A program made the translations under genes and the position numbers. Positions 1 to 6,255 of a stretch of DNA of 6,255 nucleotides are shown here, in pieces. A model generated the notes under the pieces. The model made no database searches. It was not told the DNA's origin and saw only the letters and a program-made list of their open reading frames with translations. Source of the DNA: a virus (Duplodnaviria > Heunggongvirae > Uroviricota > Caudoviricetes); the IMG/VR virus record IMGVR_UViG_2728369593_000012, positions 1-6,255 of that record; one strand, 5' to 3'. Every line of letters starts with the position of its first letter. Position 1 is the stretch's first letter.

Positions 1-8
1 GAATAGTC

Positions 9-200
9 ATGACCAAAGAAGAAAAAATTCTTTATTTATTCCAACTATCGGTTAAGACTCACACTGCATATCAGACTGCTGCCATGACATCAGATAAAAA
101 TTACAGTACGTCAGAAAACCCGATAGACGACATAAGCAAGCTTTACGATAAGTTCGAAGCACTACTCGATAAAAAGTTTGCTGAGGCTGGGCTTGAGTGA
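9..200 (+). CDS. Hypothetical small protein (63 aa as given). The reading frame is open back to the window edge, so the gene may be 5'-truncated here.
   Basis: ORF in the track; no obvious Shine-Dalgarno before the ATG at 9; no in-frame stop between position 1 and 9. Lies in an AT-rich segment (18 G+C in the first 60 nt by direct count). No recognisable motif. Confidence 0.3.
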   Translation: MTKEEKILYLFQLSVKTHTAYQTAAMTSDKNYSTSENPIDDISKLYDKFEALLDKKFAEAGLE

Positions 201-426
201 TTGTTGAATAATCGACAAAACCCAACTTAAATTTTCGTCAGTGGGCTCGATGCCATGTGCGGTGAGCTCACTTTTCAAAACTCCAAGCAATTCAGAGCTG
301 ATTTTCAATATATCTGCTTGATTTCTAACTATTCCCACTTTTCCTCTCTTGGTCTACGCGCGGTCATGTTTTACGCCCAAACGACTTCACAGTTATTGTT
401 TAAAATCTGGACTTTCATTTTGTTCT

Positions 427-648
427 TTAACCTCCAGATTTCCGCGCATCTAAAGGCGCATTCTCATTTGGTGTGAACTGAATAGTTGTGCTGATATTGA
501 TTAATGCCCCGACACACAAGACTACGCACTCAGAGCAGATAGCAACTTCATCTTTTCCGCCTTTGGCGATGATTTTTTTTGCCTGCAGCTCGTTTGCGCC
601 ACAAAACGAGCATGTGAAATAACGGTTCATTTGCGCTCTCTTACACAT
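427..648 (-). CDS. ClpX-type C4 zinc-finger (ClpX N-terminal zinc-binding domain-like) small protein
   Basis: Translation contains FTCSFCG...KKIIAKG...VAICSECVVLC, which aligns by eye with the E. coli ClpX N-terminus (LLYCSFCGK...KLIAG...VYICDECVDLC): two CxxC pairs with conserved spacing. An alternative start at the second Met (ATG ending at 630, MNRYFTCSFCG) is preceded by a weak GAGAG SD-like motif; the ATG at 648 has none. First gene downstream of the putative leftward promoter. Confidence 0.6.
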   Translation of the reverse strand: MCKRAQMNRYFTCSFCGANELQAKKIIAKGGKDEVAICSECVVLCVGALINISTTIQFTPNENAPLDARKSGG

Positions 649-801
649 AGTATTTAACGAATCATCCGGTCATTCATACGCCACCGGCGGCTACTTCGTG
701 GGCGTCCTGCCTGTTCGTTTTTGACATTTACTGACTGCTTACGACACATGCACCGTGTTGCAACCAGATTTTGTTGTAATCCTGTAGTTGGTCTGGAACA
801 A

Positions 802-859
802 AAGATAAAATTAAATTGCGAGATATGCAAGTGATATTTGCGGGATATGCAAATTGATA
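802..859 (-). promoter_or_regulatory. OL-like operator pair with putative leftward pL-type promoter
   Basis: Two tandem 15-bp sites, TTGCGAGATATGCAA (816-830) and TTGCGGGATATGCAA (838-852), inside a ~21-bp direct repeat; same TTGC-N7-GCAA dyad as the cI/cro intergenic site at 1619-1633. On the minus strand a -35 TTGCAT (830-825), 17-bp spacer and -10 TATCTT (807-802) can be drawn; the promoter assignment is tentative. Confidence 0.4.
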
Positions 860-862
860 GGT

Positions 863-886
863 AATAAAAAGCCACCTTTCGGTGGC
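863..886 (-). terminator. Rho-independent terminator downstream of cI
   Basis: Plus strand aaaaaGCCACCtttcGGTGGC (866-886); on the minus strand this reads GCCACC-GAAA-GGTGGC followed by TTTTT, 20 nt after the cI stop codon (906-908). Confidence 0.55.
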
Positions 887-905
887 CGATGGAAGGATAT
901 TGAGG

Positions 906-1598
906 TTAATTATGTCTCTTAAGGGTTTGCGACTGACTGATTAAGACCTTTCCAAAGACCATGAATCGGTGTTCGTTTTCGCTAGTAATTCCCCATTCAC
1001 GGTAAATCTGGTTATCAGAAATCACCAGCAGTTTGTCAGGAATCATTTGAAGTCTTTTAACGTATATTTTGTCATCAAAACCAAAGACATATATACCATC
1101 ACCATCAAACTGATTGATGCTGACATCAACGAAGATGAGATCTCCTGGCTCAATGGTTGGACACATACTGTCCCCACGAACGTTGATAACTTTGATGTGA
1201 TTGGCTGGTCGTCCGCCGAACATTGATACAGCATTATCAGTTCTGTATTCGATGGCATGAATCACATCAATGACATCACCGCCCTGGATAAGGCCATTTC
1301 CCGCACTGGCACTGATATCCAGCATTTCAATACGGAACACATCCTTCACCTGCGCAACATCCTCATCATTACTGTTTTTATATACAGTATTACTTTTGTG
1401 GGCAGAGGTAAAGAGATCAGCAATATCAACACCTAAGCTCTTGGCAATATTACTCAGTGTTTGTTCGGTAAATTGTTTTTGCTTACCCGTTTCTAAGCGC
1501 GAGATGTTCGCCGCATCTACTCCTATTGCTTCAGCGAGATCGGCGATTTTCATGTTCTTCGCTTGGCGAAGTTGTCTGACTCGGTTTCCTATGTTCAT
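906..1598 (-). CDS. cI: CI-type phage repressor (N-terminal XRE-family HTH, C-terminal S24 LexA-like autopeptidase domain)
   Basis: 230 aa. N-terminus has an HTH pattern (KIADLAEAIGVDAANISRLETG). C-terminus has the S24 signature GDSM (Ser144) and KRL (Lys181), and a candidate Ala-Gly cleavage site at SASA-GNG (A99-G100). Divergent from a cro-like gene, typical of lambdoid immunity regions. Confidence 0.9.
   Translation of the reverse strand: MNIGNRVRQLRQAKNMKIADLAEAIGVDAANISRLETGKQKQFTEQTLSNIAKSLGVDIADLFTSAHKSNTVYKNSNDEDVAQVKDVFRIEMLDISASAGNGLIQGGDVIDVIHAIEYRTDNAVSMFGGRPANHIKVINVRGDSMCPTIEPGDLIFVDVSINQFDGDGIYVFGFDDKIYVKRLQMIPDKLLVISDNQIYREWGITSENEHRFMVFGKVLISQSQTLKRHN
1370..1389. promoter_or_regulatory. 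Near-consensus SOS (LexA) box inside the cI coding sequence
   Basis: TACTGTTTTTATATACAGTA: perfect CTGT-N8-ACAG core with TA flanks and an AT-only spacer, matching the E. coli LexA box consensus TACTG(TA)5CAGTA at all conserved positions. Lies in codons 70-77 (linker) of cI. Only such site in the window. Confidence 0.5.
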
Positions 1599-1695
1599 GC
1601 GTTTATTACATTTCTTTATTGCGTGATAAGCAAATCAACTTGCGCAAAATAATTGCGTGAAATAACATGCATAACGCGCAATATTTGGAGGGCGT
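1599..1695. promoter_or_regulatory. Divergent cI/cro operator-promoter region (OR-like, with pRM-like and pR-like promoters)
   Basis: 97-bp intergenic region between divergent cI and cro. Operator-like dyads: TTGCGTGATAAGCAA (1619-1633) and, in reverse orientation, ATGCATAACGCGCAA (1667-1681); further TTGCG/CGCAA half-sites at 1640-1647 and 1653-1660. Candidate leftward promoter: -35 TTGCTT (1633-1628) and -10 TGTAAT (1610-1605) on the minus strand. Candidate rightward promoter: -35 TTGCGC (1640-1645) and -10 TAACAT (1663-1668). Confidence 0.6.
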
Positions 1696-1956
1696 ATGCA
1701 ATCACCATTACGAAATGTGCGTAAGGCGCATGGTTTCACTTTGCAGCATGTTGCTGCGGGTGTTCAAGTCAATCCAGCGACGTTGAGTCGTATTGAGAGG
1801 CTGGAGCAGATTCCATCTATCGAGCTTGCAGAACGTTTAGCCAATTTTTTTAAGGGTGAAGTCAGCGAAATGCAGATTCTTTATCCGGCACGTTTTCAAT
1901 CTAGCCAAAACCAGAATGGGTTTAAACCACAGGAACAGGAGGTGAACCGTGGGTAA
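1696..1956 (+). CDS. cro: Cro-like XRE-family HTH transcriptional regulator
   Basis: 86 aa; ATG preceded by GGAGG (1687-1691). HTH pattern FTLQHVAAGVQVNPATLSRIE. Divergent from cI. 3' end overlaps the next gene by 8 nt. Confidence 0.75.
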   Translation: MQSPLRNVRKAHGFTLQHVAAGVQVNPATLSRIERLEQIPSIELAERLANFFKGEVSEMQILYPARFQSSQNQNGFKPQEQEVNRG

Positions 1957-2500
1957 GCATCACTGGAAAGTAGAAAAACAGCCTGAGTGGTACGTGAAAG
2001 CTGTCAGAAAAACTATCGCAGCGTTGCCGGGGGGGTACGCTGAAGCTGCTGACTGGCTGGATGTAACAGAGCACGCATTATTTAACCGCCTTCGTGCCGA
2101 TGGCGATCAGATTTTCCCGCTGGGATGGGCAATGATTTTGCAACGTGCTGGTGGAACTCACTTCATTGCTGACGCTGTGGCGCAGTCTGCAAATGGCGTC
2201 TTTGTGTCTCTTCCTGATGTCGAGGATGTGGACAACGCCGATATCAACCAACGCCTGCTGGAAGTCATTGAACAGATCGGCAGTTATTCAAAACAGATTC
2301 GTTCAGCAATCGAAGACGGTGTAGTGGAACCGCATGAGAAGACAGCAATTAACGATGAGCTGTACCTCTCAATTTCGAAGCTGCAGGAGCATGCAGCTCT
2401 GGTCTACAAAATCTTTTGCGTTTCAGAAAGTAGTGACGCCCGCGAGTGTGCAGCTCCGGGCGCCGTGGCGTGTCGTGACTGTGGAGAAACTAACGCATGA
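1949..2500 (+). CDS. CII-like / YdaT-like phage regulatory protein (lysis-lysogeny regulator analogue)
   Basis: 183 aa; GTG start at 1949 preceded by AGGAGG (1937-1942); an in-frame TGA at 1943-1945 prevents upstream extension. Positioned immediately after cro, as in cI-cro-cII (lambda) and racR-ydaS-ydaT (Rac/CP-933P) modules. Family assignment is from recollection of YdaT/CII-like proteins, not a search. Confidence 0.55.
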
Positions 2501-2658
2501 ACAGTTTAACAACACACTACCGTCGCTCGCAACTGATTGCGCTTCCTGTACCGGGTGGAAAAGCGAAGGTGGAGTATTGCTATGCAGTAAATGTACCAGG
2601 TGACAGGGAAATTGTAACCCACAGCTTTGTCAGAGTGGGCGTGTGGGTGGATTTCTAA
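2497..2658 (+). CDS. Hypothetical small protein (53 aa), not in the supplied ORF track
   Basis: ATG at 2497 overlaps the upstream TGA stop (ATGA, 2497-2500), suggesting translational coupling; GGAG at 2483-2486. Translation [53 protein letters not shown]; stop TAA at 2656-2658. Confidence 0.35.
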
Positions 2659-2679
2659 CCGGCAGAAGGAGACAGTCCT

Positions 2680-2859
2680 TTGCGACAAGTTAACCGCTGG
2701 TTCAAAGATCACTACGGAGTGCCCGTCAGAGTCATTCGTTGGGAGCCGGAAACACAACGTGTTATCTACCTCCGCGAAGGCTATGAGCATGAGTGCTTCA
2801 GCCCGCTCGAACAGTTTCGTCGTAAATTCAGGGAAATAGAGGTCGGTCATGAGCACTAA
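2680..2859 (+). CDS. Hypothetical small protein (59 aa), TTG start, not in the supplied ORF track
   Basis: Strong SD AAGGAG (2666-2671) 8 nt upstream of TTG at 2680. Translation (M)[58 protein letters not shown]; stop TAA at 2857-2859, overlapping the start of the replication gene by 11 nt. Same frame as 2497..2658, separated by a single TAA. Confidence 0.35.
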
Positions 2860-3790
2860 ATTAACCGGCTATGTATGGGATGGTTGCGCTGCATCAGGCA
2901 TGAAATTATCCAGCGTGGCAATTATGGCCCGCCTGGCTGATTTCAGTAATGACGAAGGTGTGTGCTGGCCATCAATTGAAACCATTGCCCGCCAGATTGG
3001 CGCGGGAATGAGTACCGTCAGAACGGCTATCGCACGGCTGGAAGCAGAAGGCTGGTTAACGCGTAAGGCGCGTCGCCAGGGTAACCGCAATGCGTCGAAT
3101 GTTTATCAGCTTAACGTTGCGAAGCTTCAGGCAGCGGCATTTTCTCAACTGTCAGATTCTGACCCGTCAAAATCTGACGCATCAAAATCTGACCCGTCAA
3201 AATTTGATGCGTCGAAATCTGGCAAAAAAGCGGGTTTTCACCCGTCAGAATCTGGCGGGGATCCGTCAGTAAAATCAAAACATGATCCGTCAGATAAAAA
3301 AACTTCTCGTCCGGACGCTTCGCAACCGGACACGCAGACGGCTGAACAGGAGTTTTTAACTCGCGATCCTGATGCGGTTGTATTCAGCCCTAAAAAGCGC
3401 CAGTGGGGAACGCAGGATGATTTGACCTGCGCACAGTGGCTCTGGAAAAAAATCATCGCCCTGTACGAGCAGGCCGCCGAATGTGACGGCGAGGTGGTTC
3501 GTCCCAAAGAACCGAACTGGACAGCCTGGGCAAACGAAATTCGCCTGATGTGTGTGCAGGATGGTCGTACTCATAAACAAATCTGCGAGATGTACAGCCG
3601 CGTCAGTCGCGATCCGTTCTGGTGCCGTAACGTGCTCAGCCCGTCGAAGCTGCGGGAAAAATGGGATGAGCTTTCCCTGCGCTTATCGCCGTCCGTCAGC
3701 ACGTACACCGAAAAACGCGAAGACCCGTACTTCAAAGCCAGTTACGACAACGTGGACTACAGCCAGATCCCGGCAGGATTCAGGGGGTGA
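2849..3790 (+). CDS. Phage replication initiation protein (N-terminal winged-helix DNA-binding domain; O-like / DnaT-like C-terminal region)
   Basis: 313 aa; ATG with GAGG 5 nt upstream. N-terminal pattern ARLADFSNDEGVCWPSIETIARQIGAGMSTVRTAIARLEAEGWL is typical of phage replication-initiator HTH domains. Low-complexity linker encoded by the iteron array. Occupies the O-gene position after cII. The C-terminal homology is recalled, not searched. Confidence 0.65.
   Translation: MSTKLTGYVWDGCAASGMKLSSVAIMARLADFSNDEGVCWPSIETIARQIGAGMSTVRTAIARLEAEGWLTRKARRQGNRNASNVYQLNVAKLQAAAFSQLSDSDPSKSDASKSDPSKFDASKSGKKAGFHPSESGGDPSVKSKHDPSDKKTSRPDASQPDTQTAEQEFLTRDPDAVVFSPKKRQWGTQDDLTCAQWLWKKIIALYEQAAECDGEVVRPKEPNWTAWANEIRLMCVQDGRTHKQICEMYSRVSRDPFWCRNVLSPSKLREKWDELSLRLSPSVSTYTEKREDPYFKASYDNVDYSQIPAGFRG
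3151..3300. repeat. Iteron array (putative phage replication origin) inside the replication initiator gene
   Basis: Four tandem 15-bp units at 3158-3217 (TCTGACCCGTCAAAA / TCTGACGCATCAAAA / TCTGACCCGTCAAAA / TTTGATGCGTCGAAA), plus further CCGTCAG copies at 3241-3249, 3262-3269 and 3286-3293 in both orientations. Internal dyads GTCAGAtTCTGAC (3151-3163) and CGTCAaaatcTGACG. Followed by an A-rich stretch (3271-3303). Mirrors the lambda ori-within-O arrangement. Confidence 0.5.
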
Positions 3791-3792
3791 GC

Positions 3793-4281
3793 ATGAGTCT
3801 TTTGAATGACGTTCAGAAATTCATTGAAGCCCATCCGGGCTGTACTTCCGGAGATATTGCGGATGCTTTTGCCGGTTACTCACGGCAGCGCGTTCTGCAG
3901 TCAGCAAGCAAGTTACGTCAGAGTGGGCGTGTGGCTCACCGTTGTGAAGGAGATACACGCAGACATTTCCCGCGCCTGACTGAGAGAGCGCAGGAACCGG
4001 AACCACAACCAGTTCGTGAAACCAGACCTGTGCGCAATTTCTATGTCGGCACTAACGATCCCCGTGTGATTTTGTGCCTGACCCGCCAGGCGGAAGAACT
4101 GGAGTCCAGAGGCTTATACCGTCGTGCTGCAACCGTGTGGATGGCGGCATTCCGTGAAAGCCACTCCCAGCCAGAACGAAACAATTTTCTGGCGCGTCGT
4201 GAGCGGTGCTTACGGAAAAGCAGCAAGCGCGCTGCATCGGGTGAAGAGTGGTATCTGTCAGGGAATTACGTGGGGGCTTAA
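3793..4281 (+). CDS. PerC-family transcriptional regulator-like protein with N-terminal extension
   Basis: C-terminal segment AEELESRGLYRRAATVWMAAF...RRERCLRKS matches the PerC/Pch signature (GLWRRAA..RW...RR..CL) from memory. The ATG at 3793 has GGGGG 5 nt upstream (the ORF track uses GTG at 3787). Stop TAA (4279-4281) overlaps the next ATG. Confidence 0.55.
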   Translation: MSLLNDVQKFIEAHPGCTSGDIADAFAGYSRQRVLQSASKLRQSGRVAHRCEGDTRRHFPRLTERAQEPEPQPVRETRPVRNFYVGTNDPRVILCLTRQAEELESRGLYRRAATVWMAAFRESHSQPERNNFLARRERCLRKSSKRAASGEEWYLSGNYVGA

Positions 4282-4934
4282 TGAGTAATAAATATTGCCA
4301 GGCGCTGGTGGAACTGCGGAACAAACCAGCCCATGAACTGAAGGAAGTGGGCGATCAGTGGCGCACGCCGGACAACATTTTCTGGGGAATTAACACCCTG
4401 TTTGGCCCGTTTGTTCTGGATCTGTTCACTGACGGTGATAACGCCAAATGTGCCGCGTATTACACGGCGGAAGACAACGCGCTGGCGCATGACTGGTCAG
4501 AACGTCTTGCGGAGCTTAAAGGTGCTGCCTTTGGTAATCCCCCATACAGCCGCGCCAGTCAGCATGAGGGGCAATACATCACCGGCATGCGTTACATCAT
4601 GAAACATGCCAGTGCCATGCGTGATAAGGGCGGGCGCTATGTTTTCCTGATCAAAGCTGCCACCAGCGAAGTGTGGTGGCCGGAAGATGCAGATCATATT
4701 GCTTTTATTCGCGGGCGTATTGGTTTTGAACTGCCTGTCTGGTTTATCCCGAAAGACGAGAAGCAGGTACCGACAGGAGCTTTTTTCGCTGGTGCTATTG
4801 CTGTTTTTGACAAGACCTGGAAGGGACCGGCAATCAGCTACATCGGGCGCGATGAACTTGAGGCATGTGGTGAGGCGTTTCTGGCGCAGGTTCGCCAGCA
4901 GGCGGAAAAACTGGTCAGGGAGATGGCGGCATGA
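4281..4934 (+). CDS. Phage-type DNA N6-adenine methyltransferase (Dam-like, orphan)
   Basis: NPPY motif (GNPPYS), the catalytic (D/N)PPY signature of N6-adenine methyltransferases; size and gene context fit the phage Dam family. Start at ATG 4281 (TAATG overlap with the upstream gene); the ORF track's longer form begins at GTG 4248. No restriction endonuclease gene adjacent. Confidence 0.75.
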   Translation: MSNKYCQALVELRNKPAHELKEVGDQWRTPDNIFWGINTLFGPFVLDLFTDGDNAKCAAYYTAEDNALAHDWSERLAELKGAAFGNPPYSRASQHEGQYITGMRYIMKHASAMRDKGGRYVFLIKAATSEVWWPEDADHIAFIRGRIGFELPVWFIPKDEKQVPTGAFFAGAIAVFDKTWKGPAISYIGRDELEACGEAFLAQVRQQAEKLVREMAA

Positions 4935-5257
4935 CGACGTTAACTCAATGCCAGCAGCAGGTGCTGGATATGCTGATTTCTTATCAGAAAGAACGTGGCT
5001 TCCCGCCAACCAATCAGGAGGTGGCAACCATGCTGGGATACCGTTCGGTGAATGCAGCGGTGGAGCATCTTCGCGCACTGGAGAAAAAAGGCGTCATCAC
5101 GATAAAGCGTGGCGTGGCCCGGGGGATCACGCTTCATACCGCAGTGAAGGACGACGACAGCGAAGCGGTCGGGATCATCCGCGCACTGCTTGCCGGTGAG
5201 GAAAACGCAAGGCTGCGTGCAACCCACTGGTTACATGAGAGAGGCCTGAAAGTATGA
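4931..5257 (+). CDS. LexA N-terminal DNA-binding-domain-only protein (LexA-like winged HTH; no S24 peptidase domain)
   Basis: 108 aa. LTQCQQQVLDMLISYQKERGFPPTNQEVATMLGYRSVNAAVEHLRALEKKGVITIKRGVARGITL aligns by eye along its length with E. coli LexA residues ~4-70 ([65 protein letters not shown]), including the recognition helix. ATGA overlaps at both ends (4931-4934 and 5254-5257). Confidence 0.75.
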   Translation: MTTLTQCQQQVLDMLISYQKERGFPPTNQEVATMLGYRSVNAAVEHLRALEKKGVITIKRGVARGITLHTAVKDDDSEAVGIIRALLAGEENARLRATHWLHERGLKV

Positions 5258-5643
5258 AGCTGATCCTGCCTTTCCCGCCCAGCGTGAACACCTACTGGCG
5301 ACACCCCAACAAAGGGGCATTTGCTGGTAAGAGCCTGATAAGCGAGGCGGGGCGAAAATTTCAGAGCGCGGCGTGCGCAGCAATAGTTGAGCAGTTACGT
5401 CGTCTGCCAAAACCAACGTCGGCACCTGCTTCAGTGGAGATCGTGTTGTTTCCGCCGGATAACCGGATCCGCGATCTGGACAACTATAACAAGGCGCTGT
5501 TTGACGCCCTGACCCACGCGGGTGTGTGGGAAGACGACAGACAGGTGAAAAGAATGCTGGTGGAGTGGGGACCGGTTATCCCGAAAGGGAAGGTCGAGAT
5601 CACTATCAGTAAGTATGAGAAAACGGCGGGTGCAGCCGCCTGA
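5254..5643 (+). CDS. rusA: Crossover junction endodeoxyribonuclease RusA (Holliday junction resolvase)
   Basis: 129 aa; LPFPPSVNTYWRH...DLDNYNKALFDALTHAGVWEDDRQV resembles E. coli RusA (LPWPPSNNRYYRH...[25 protein letters not shown]). Typical nin-region gene of lambdoid phages. Confidence 0.85.
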   Translation: MKLILPFPPSVNTYWRHPNKGAFAGKSLISEAGRKFQSAACAAIVEQLRRLPKPTSAPASVEIVLFPPDNRIRDLDNYNKALFDALTHAGVWEDDRQVKRMLVEWGPVIPKGKVEITISKYEKTAGAAA

Positions 5644-5662
5644 TTAAGAGGAGAAACGAAGT

Positions 5663-6255
5663 ATGAATAATCTGATGGTTATTGATGGTATTGAAGTTCG
5701 TCGTGATGCTTATGGGCGTTACAGCCTGAACGATCTGCACAGGGCAGCCGGGGGAGAACAAAAAAACCGCCCGAAATACTGGCTCTCCAATAAGCAAACC
5801 TGTGAATTGATTGAACAACTTTTCACCGAGGGTGGAATTCCGCCTCTGGAACAAAATCAACCAGTTAGCGTCATTAATGGCGGAAATAACCAGGGGACGT
5901 ATGTCTGCAAAGAACTGGTGTATGCCTATGCAATGTGGATCAGCCCGTCATTCCATCTGAAGGTGATCCGTACTTTCGATATGGTAACCAGCGCACCGGA
6001 AAAATTATCCGGGCAGGCTGCTGACAAGATGCAGGCTGGAGTGATTCTGCTGGACTTTATGCGCAGGGAGTTAAACCTGTCTAACTCTTCAGTGCTTGGT
6101 GCCTGTCAGAAACTCCAGGAGGCTGTTGGCTTACCGAATCTGGCACCGCGCTATGCCATTGATGCTCCTGCTGATGCACTCGATGGCTCAAGCCGCCCTA
6201 CGCTATCATTGAGTGCACTGCTGAAGCAGTATGGTATCCGCCTTACGGCTAATCA
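5663..6255 (+). CDS. KilA-N domain-containing protein (3'-truncated at window end)
   Basis: ATG at 5663 with AAGAGGAG (5646-5653) upstream; the frame stays open to the window end, so it is absent from the ORF track. MVIDGIEVRRDAYGRYSLNDLHRAAGG...YWLSNKQTCELIEQL...GTYVCKELVYAYAMWISPSFHLKVI matches the KilA-N/APSES-type pattern. Confidence 0.7.
   Translation, partial: MNNLMVIDGIEVRRDAYGRYSLNDLHRAAGGEQKNRPKYWLSNKQTCELIEQLFTEGGIPPLEQNQPVSVINGGNNQGTYVCKELVYAYAMWISPSFHLKVIRTFDMVTSAPEKLSGQAADKMQAGVILLDFMRRELNLSNSSVLGACQKLQEAVGLPNLAPRYAIDAPADALDGSSRPTLSLSALLKQYGIRLTAN

Follow-up and report, generated by a model that had tools for sequence, protein, structure and literature searches.

A phage-encoded LexA DNA-binding domain with a conserved helical tail in the early operon of SfV, SfII and related prophages

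Our study concerns a 108-residue protein of the LexA type encoded on the plus strand at positions 4931-5257 of a 6255-nucleotide stretch of Caudoviricetes DNA (the window; positions 1 to 6,255 of IMG/VR record IMGVR_UViG_2728369593_000012). The protein combines the complete DNA-binding head of LexA with a short, family-specific helical hairpin in place of the S24 domain, and its gene lies within the early operon of a lambdoid prophage. It has been annotated and catalogued before and is very common in Escherichia coli prophages; we treat it here as an uncharacterized phage-encoded truncated LexA homologue that is set apart among such homologues by its conserved helical tail and its very wide distribution. 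We tentatively favor the view, to which we give somewhat less than an even chance, that it acts early, is insensitive to RecA and regulates through an operator that has drifted away from the SOS box, working in the manner of gp6 of the Bacillus phage GIL01.

The assignment of the N-terminal head rests on sequence profiles, pairwise identity and structural modeling, which all agree. Residues 1-65 cover the entire 65-position Pfam profile LexA_DNA_bind (PF01726; E 2.9e-19, 69 bits against a cut-off of 23.7), phmmer matches the protein to the LexA DNA-binding domain 1LEA (E 6e-16), and an ungapped alignment with E. coli LexA shows 35 identities in 69 residues. An AlphaFold model built from 34 relatives, with an overall predicted local distance difference test score (pLDDT) of 82.5, displays the three helices and two-stranded wing of LexA; this winged helix-turn-helix spans residues 1-68 (4931-5134, plus strand), with helices at 6-22, 28-35 and 40-52, strands at 56-58 and 66-68, and a pLDDT of ~88. 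The model superposes on 3JSO and 1LEA with a root-mean-square deviation of 1.0-1.3 Å across 66-68 residues (1.0 Å for 3JSO), and the Foldseek matches to the same two structures have 50-52% identity at that deviation. The initial annotation, made from the letters of the window, had proposed a LexA-type N-terminal domain that includes the recognition helix, and these data confirm it. The labels Rrf2 and Crp, which RefSeq gives to some relatives, were rejected as both fall under the Pfam cut-offs.

The catalytic half of LexA is missing, as had also been proposed. The S24 profile PF00717 finds no match in the protein, which stops at residue 108 with rusA directly after it, and a tblastn search of the window with the C-terminal domain of LexA recovers cI as the sole S24-like sequence, with no S24 debris downstream of the LexA-like gene. 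The NCBIfam lexA equivalog TIGR00498 scores 70.5 bits, below its cut-off of 110.95, with only positions 1-91 of its 203 matched. As the S24 domain is absent, the LexA-like protein should be insensitive to RecA-stimulated self-cleavage, a prediction of the initial annotation that the domain assignment supports. The accompanying statement that the protein has no Ala-Gly cleavage site was mistaken: the tail contains Ala88-Gly89 (5192-5197, plus strand), and HMMER aligns its LLAGE on the VAAGE of LexA, placing the pair on the Ala84-Gly85 cleavage site. In relatives this pair is replaced by VG, AN, ER, TR, DD, AE and others. Since it is not conserved and the catalytic domain is absent, Ala88-Gly89 is not a functional self-cleavage site, and it may at most be a vestige of the gene's origin. 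Cleavage in trans at this pair by LexA or cI was considered and dropped because the pair is unconserved.

The head is joined to the tail by an acidic linker, HTAVKDDDS (residues 69-77; 5135-5161, plus strand), which is modeled with low confidence (pLDDT <50 for residues 71-76) and varies in length among relatives. The tail itself is a family-specific helical hairpin, EAVGIIRALLAGEENARLRATHWLHE (residues 78-103; 5162-5239, plus strand), with helices at 78-87 and 93-103 and a pLDDT of ~85. Its residues A97 and L101 are invariant, positions 82, 83, 86, 87, 93 and 100 are conserved as hydrophobic residues or alanine, and the hydrophobic pattern is kept in relatives down to 40% identity. The motif that marks members of the family, h-h-R/Q-x-L/M-h ... 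A-R-x-R-A-x-x-F/Y/W-L, is present in the window protein. A two-helix hairpin of ~26 residues is too small to bury its conserved face alone and must therefore pair, either with a second copy in a four-helix bundle or with another protein; we presume the hairpin to be a dimerization or partner-binding element, and the model makes a dimerizing tail plausible. A profile of the tail run against all PDB sequences returned a chance match only (E 0.4), with neither a relative of solved structure nor a known dimerization motif.

Five residues of LexA have been reported to contact bases, namely S39, N41, A42, E44 and E45 (PMC3091678). The recognition helix of the window protein, SVNAAVEHLRALEK (residues 39-52; 5045-5086, plus strand), keeps four of these (S39, N41, A42 and E45) and has valine in place of both Glu44 and Pro40. 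Across the 34 family members S39 and N41 are invariant, and the family never departs from E. coli LexA at K53, R64, G65 or I66, while the highest entropies in the domain fall on positions 40, 44 and 45 (2.3, 2.4 and 2.1 bits). Glu44 is found in none of the 34. Twenty variants of the helix occur, with VE, AE, FE, TD, AD, ND, LT, LA, LL, FI and AG among the pairs at positions 44-45; A42S appears even in relatives 85-88% identical to the window protein, and some relatives differ from the LexA helix by E44A alone (SPNAAAEHL). The genuine LexAs of Robbsia and Rubrivivax returned by the same search read S-x-N-A-A-E-E-H-L and keep Glu44, like that of E. coli. Judged from the boxes in their prophages, all host genera share one SOS box, and boxes on the same element are canonical whatever the helix (the Klebsiella LL and AE variants and the Citrobacter TITG variant). 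With a single SOS box shared among the hosts, an imitator of LexA should have kept LexA's helix, yet the helix varies across the family; this is the pattern expected of a regulator whose operator co-evolves with it, and it suggests that the specificity of the family has diverged.

The position of the gene provides the remaining evidence. A GGGAG ribosome-binding site can be read at 4918-4922 (plus strand), the gene's start overlaps the stop of a phage dam gene in an ATGA at 4931-4934 (plus strand), and its stop overlaps the start of rusA in a second ATGA at 5254-5257 (plus strand), and the gene is translationally coupled to both neighbors. It is part of a rightward early operon of the order cro - ymfL - replication - PerC - Dam - LexA-like gene - RusA - KilA-N - DUF968 - Q. 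This position and the coupling recur in SfV, SfII, mEp460, phiSTEC1575-Stx2k, PhiR40_1 and Cronobacter prophages; the order Dam - LexA-like gene - RusA is common to E. coli and Cronobacter, and in the window, too, the gene occupies the site typical of the family, flanked by the genes for a DNA methylase and RusA and ahead of Q in the early rightward operon. A promoter scan of the window assigned none to the LexA-like gene itself. SfV has an annotated putative dam promoter, which is weak and whose -35 element is further degraded in the window (TTGCGC to TGGCGC), and expression in the lysogen is therefore not assumed. Given its place in the rightward early operon, the protein should appear upon infection or, otherwise, not until loss of the prophage repressor. 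The late genes of this prophage are presumably under a Q-type antiterminator.

From this analysis, we propose that a gammaproteobacterial LexA would have supplied the DNA-binding half from which the regulator evolved, with the winged helix and the DNA-docking mode retained and the S24 protease and dimerization domain replaced by the short helical hairpin, so that RecA could not inactivate it. Its synthesis would accompany that of the other early lytic products of the rightward operon; it would pair through its hairpin and bind a palindromic operator related but not identical to the SOS box, and a phage or host promoter would thereby be switched off or on, as gp6 does in GIL01. With the N-terminal domain of E. 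coli LexA (1LEA, 3JSO) the protein shares the winged helix-turn-helix and the helix frame S-x-N-A-A-x-E-H-L; it differs in lacking the S24 protease and dimerization domain with Ser119 and Lys156, and hence in being uncleavable, in its C-terminal helical hairpin and its Val40 and Val44, and in being encoded by a phage within an early lytic operon.

The closest characterized relative is gp6 of GIL01, a truncated LexA homologue that recognizes an operator palindrome of its own, GaCACAnnTGTGaC, and activates the late promoter P3 (PMC6182141). Both are phage-encoded LexA DNA-binding domains without the cleavage domain, and gp6 is expressed only after SOS-dependent derepression of the early genes. 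A profile comparison by hhalign relates gp6 to the family with a probability of 96.6% and 33% identity over 63 columns, covering the whole head, and places its essential DNA-binding Lys38 on the column of N41. BLASTP yields no pairwise alignment between gp6 and the phage LexA-like protein, and the kinship thus lies at the profile level only, through the shared LexA head. The two also differ in construction and origin: gp6 has 66 residues and ends right after the wing without a tail, is encoded by a tectivirus that infects a Gram-positive host, derives from a Bacillus-type LexA, carries the recognition helix SHKTAHRYL, and has a known operator.

Several observations weigh against a diverged operator. 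With four of the five listed base contacts as in LexA, the window allele could genuinely bind SOS boxes. An enumeration of palindromes with perfect 5- and 6-nucleotide arms and spacers of 0-12 in SfV, SfII and one Stx2c phage revealed no candidate operator, and the intergenic regions from Q to the lysis genes hold terminators only; in these three phages a single palindrome turns up repeatedly at non-homologous places, the SOS box ACTGT-N8-ACAGT itself. Furthermore, in relatives from Klebsiella and Enterobacter a strong SOS-box promoter lies 530-700 nucleotides ahead of the gene on the same strand; this links the family to the SOS circuit and would suit autoregulation through an SOS box. The boxes there, TACTGTTTATTTATACAGTA and AACTGTACATTCATACAGTG, overlap or closely follow a promoter-like site, are perfect or near-perfect (L010 5385-5404; L030 9468-9487; in L031 and L026 ~690 nucleotides upstream of the gene) and are perfectly conserved between sequences with diverged flanks. 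In every context the LexA-like protein would then be wired for synthesis after DNA damage removes an S24-type repressor, a timing that we deduce from gene order.

The SOS-headed operon of these Klebsiella and Enterobacter elements reads (dinI) - conserved small open reading frame - LexA-like gene - orf67 - DUF968 - Q-like. In K. pneumoniae a pair of AAA_15 and DUF4435 genes adjoins the SOS box and resembles the PARIS defense system. An intergenic stretch just upstream of the LexA-like gene in this subgroup (…TCATAGGCCTGAACAACCTATACCTGCTGCG…CGGAGAGA…ATG; columns ~622-675 of alignment A7, L010 ~5950-6003, L030 ~9866-9910) is conserved beyond the level of the flanking coding sequence and contains a small inverted repeat, ATAGG-N9-CCTAT, which could be an operator or an RNA element.

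The strongest alternative, which we consider possible but unlikely, is that the protein is a true mimic of LexA that dimerizes through its tail, binds canonical LexA boxes and re-imposes repression once host LexA has been cleaved. Its targets would be host SOS genes, SOS-induced toxins, colicins, the antirepressors of rival prophages, genes of its own phage that carry SOS boxes and a box inside cI. The architecture alone can act as a repressor: in the two-hybrid system of Dmitrova et al. (1998), as used in PMC7160566, the LexA DNA-binding domain does not repress sulA-lacZ by itself, while its fusion to any homodimerizing partner does repress at the sulA box. These fusions resemble the phage protein in joining a LexA head to an unrelated dimerizer and are RecA-insensitive repressors of the sulA SOS box; they differ in carrying the wild-type helix (or the defined 408 variant), whereas the phage protein is naturally changed at positions 40 and 44 and its dimerization through the tail is presumed. 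The retained base contacts and the invariant K53, R64, G65 and I66 shared with LexA, the relatives whose helix differs by E44A only, the standing of the SOS box as the sole recurrent palindrome in carrier phages and the SOS-box promoter of the Klebsiella and Enterobacter subgroup all speak for this alternative. Against it stand the family-wide absence of Glu44 and the hypervariability of positions 44 and 45 (LL, FI and AG among the pairs) in hosts that share one SOS box.

The box inside cI bears on both sides of this question. A canonical SOS box, TACTGTTTTTATATACAGTA, is present at 1370-1389, where the initial annotation had placed an SOS box and saw a candidate site for the LexA-like protein; it lies within the linker codons N-T-V-Y-K-N-S of the repressor. 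It scores 26.9, equal to the best box of a matrix that was built on E. coli SOS boxes and whose scores are rough, and no box of at least 20 arose in 200 shuffles of the window. The arms of the box are kept in cI alleles of 92% identity and in a Citrobacter prophage in which the linker is otherwise rewritten, and their persistence despite that rewriting suggests that selection acts on the box. The LexA-like protein of this Citrobacter prophage has the helix SVNTITGHL, and as the box is kept nonetheless, it does not track the phage protein. A relaxed sigma-70 scan detected no promoter-like site within 90 nucleotides of the box on either strand, and a stricter scan of the whole window likewise found none near it; the box may serve as a roadblock, in looping or in some other way. 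The LexA-like gene accompanies the box-bearing cI allele in each of the 10 distinct phages of the collection that have this allele, in keeping with a LexA mimic, but among 5426 complete E. coli genomes the allele is found in 1040 and the gene in 2233. By these comparisons the cI box is most likely a site for host LexA.

SOS boxes elsewhere in carrier phages lead to a similar picture. A box, TACTGTAAAAATAAACAGTG (L002 (SfV) 34170-34189; L006 16752-16771; L008 7071-7090; L009 7067-7086), lies over codons 3-9 of a late-region DNA methyltransferase gene between Q and the lysis genes, and phages with other cI alleles that have it include SfV, Stx2c phages, cdtI and Kp4866-6; in mEp460 and PhiR40_1 the methylase region is present together with the box-bearing cI allele. 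The methylase box is kept at 83% gene identity in Klebsiella and Citrobacter phages and reads N-T-V-K-I-N-S, the same frame as the cI box. Stx2c prophages have, near their right end, a dinI homologue preceded by two tandem SOS boxes (L006 49261-49308 and 48987-49247, minus strand). Box and gene also occur independently of one another: the Citrobacter phage phiNP has the methylase box and no LexA-like gene in the rep-to-terS stretch examined, while Cronobacter prophages have the gene and no box within 12 kb, and several other loci likewise have the gene and no box. The simplest reading of this distribution is that prophage SOS boxes are sites for host LexA, independent of the LexA-like gene. 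The comparative data weaken the case for a LexA mimic, which is still a reasonable hypothesis.

A third explanation, which we consider improbable, is that the tail binds a partner protein and that the LexA-like protein is an adaptor or controller tied to the methyltransferase, like the C proteins of restriction-modification systems, or to RusA, and is no free-standing transcription factor. In E. coli and Cronobacter the gene directly follows that of a DNA methyltransferase, Dam, and in Kp4866-6 and Enterobacter TMH.L2 that of a C5 methylase, RusA is immediately downstream in most contexts, with the stop/start overlap in the window, and the inability of the hairpin to bury its hydrophobic face alone would be met equally by a partner. 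The Klebsiella pneumoniae context, however, has neither methylase nor RusA, the order may be no more than the arrangement fixed for the region, and the sequence upstream of dam showed neither a controller-type operator nor another palindrome. That the gene is a decaying, functionless remnant of a captured lexA, as its resemblance to a truncated LexA and the Ala-Gly pair aligned on the cleavage site might suggest, is hardly credible and already contradicted by the conservation data, since the gene is intact at ≥95% identity in 2233 E. coli genomes, head and tail are conserved to 40% identity across many genera with invariant residues in the tail, and the gene is coupled to both neighbors with no S24 debris downstream.

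The family to which the LexA-like protein belongs is very widely distributed. Residues 1-108 align with positions 1-106 of the 106-position profile of PHROG 362 ('transcriptional repressor'; E 1.2e-59), RefSeq labels the product 'LexA family transcriptional regulator', and the gene corresponds to SfV orf42, SfII_44 and mEp460 gp46 (97-99% identity). At ≥95% identity it is present in 2233 of the 5426 complete E. coli genomes, in up to four copies a genome and roughly 2800 E. coli copies overall, and in 61 phage records, among them Stx2a phages, Stx2c phages and phage cdtI. Distant members, with 40-66% identity, 105-135 residues and the same tail, extend the range of prophage hosts from E. coli/Shigella to Salmonella, Citrobacter, Cronobacter, Klebsiella, Enterobacter, Kosakonia, Leclercia and Atlantibacter. 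A comparative study of Stx phages lists the family as 'pham 237, pfam01726' without studying it (PMC8136144), and our literature search found no functional study of SfV orf42 or the PHROG 362 protein.

Other stand-alone phage proteins with LexA_DNA_bind domains (PHROGs 24920, 3502 and 29443, and those of Kp4866-6 and Raoultella) have the same head with other C-termini, and those of Pseudescherichia have ~10 residues after the wing. In the Klebsiella phage Kp4866-6 (L008 2247-2750) and in Raoultella (L021), a LexA head with the helix SPNAAATHL is followed by an unrelated C-terminal segment of ~90 residues in place of the hairpin, and the Kp4866-6 gene is placed as in E. coli, between a DNA C5-methyltransferase gene in the place of Dam and RusA. 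A different C-terminus on the same head at the same locus suggests that the DNA-binding head stays constant while C-terminal modules are exchanged on it. Many proteins of the representative library (for example P0132, P0133, P0148 and P0151) contain two tandem LexA_DNA_bind stretches in 140-350 residues, and may be single-chain 'dimers' of the LexA head.

The window as a whole represents the immunity region and early genes of an SfII/SfV-like (e14-related) lambdoid prophage of E. coli/Shigella; within it, the segment from cI to cro matches Shigella phage SfII at 99.5% identity and several E. coli chromosomes at 100%. A cI-type repressor with an S24 domain is encoded at 906-1598 on the minus strand, followed by cro (1696-1956), a YmfL/CII-like gene (1949-2500), a DUF4222 gene (2680-2859), a replication initiator with internal iterons (2849-3790) and a PerC-like gene (3787-4281). 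The operon partners of the LexA-like gene are the phage Dam N6-adenine methyltransferase upstream (4248-4934, plus strand; PF05869, E 1.1e-45), for which the RefSeq start of the homologous gene maps to position 4281, and the RusA Holliday-junction resolvase downstream (5254-5643, plus strand; PF05866, E 1e-14). A KilA-N protein gene begins at 5663, and in complete relatives a DUF968 protein, the Q-type antiterminator and the lysis genes come next. PADLOC gave no meaningful match to a defense system.

Three further features of the window deserve mention. Within codons 7-12 of the LexA-like gene, at 4951-4967, lies a 17-nucleotide palindrome, CCAGCA-GCAGG-TGCTGG, that is kept in SfV, SfII and an Stx2c phage, possibly as mere conservation of coding sequence. 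Iteron-like inverted repeats at 3150-3215 (GTCAAAATCTGAC and variants) within the replication-initiator gene, which encode a run of SDPSK-like repeats in the protein, are the likely phage origin. Finally, an open reading frame of 73 amino acids at 427-648 on the minus strand, to the left of cI and past a terminator at 887-870, encodes a stand-alone ClpX C4 zinc finger (PF06689, E 1.4e-10; PHROG 5259, function unknown) and is unannotated in the records of E. coli HeN100 and SfII. ClpXP degrades the N-terminal fragment of LexA and lambda O, and a free substrate-recognition domain of ClpX in a phage is possibly of interest in that light.

The SOS response controls mutagenesis, persistence, colicin release and the induction of Stx and other prophages, and the consequences of our findings for it depend on what the LexA-like protein binds. 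Prophages in ~41% of complete E. coli genomes carry this protein, and it is a rather doubtful prospect that it acts there as a RecA-proof paralogue of LexA that binds genuine SOS boxes and re-closes the SOS regulon while host LexA is being destroyed. Should it do so, it would be made upon derepression of the prophage, and in Klebsiella and Enterobacter directly from an SOS-box promoter, and it would silence SOS-induced toxins, colicin lysis genes, the LexA-controlled antirepressors of rival prophages and error-prone polymerases; in SfII-type phages the cI box would be occupied and re-synthesis of the repressor blocked, and a large share of E. coli, Shigella and Shiga toxin-producing E. coli strains would harbor a hidden, uncleavable brake on the SOS response. 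If the protein instead acts at an operator of its own, it would represent an unrecognized regulatory layer of SfV-, SfII- and Stx2c-type phages and, alongside gp6 of GIL01, a natural re-use of the LexA head with a new dimerizer and a new specificity.

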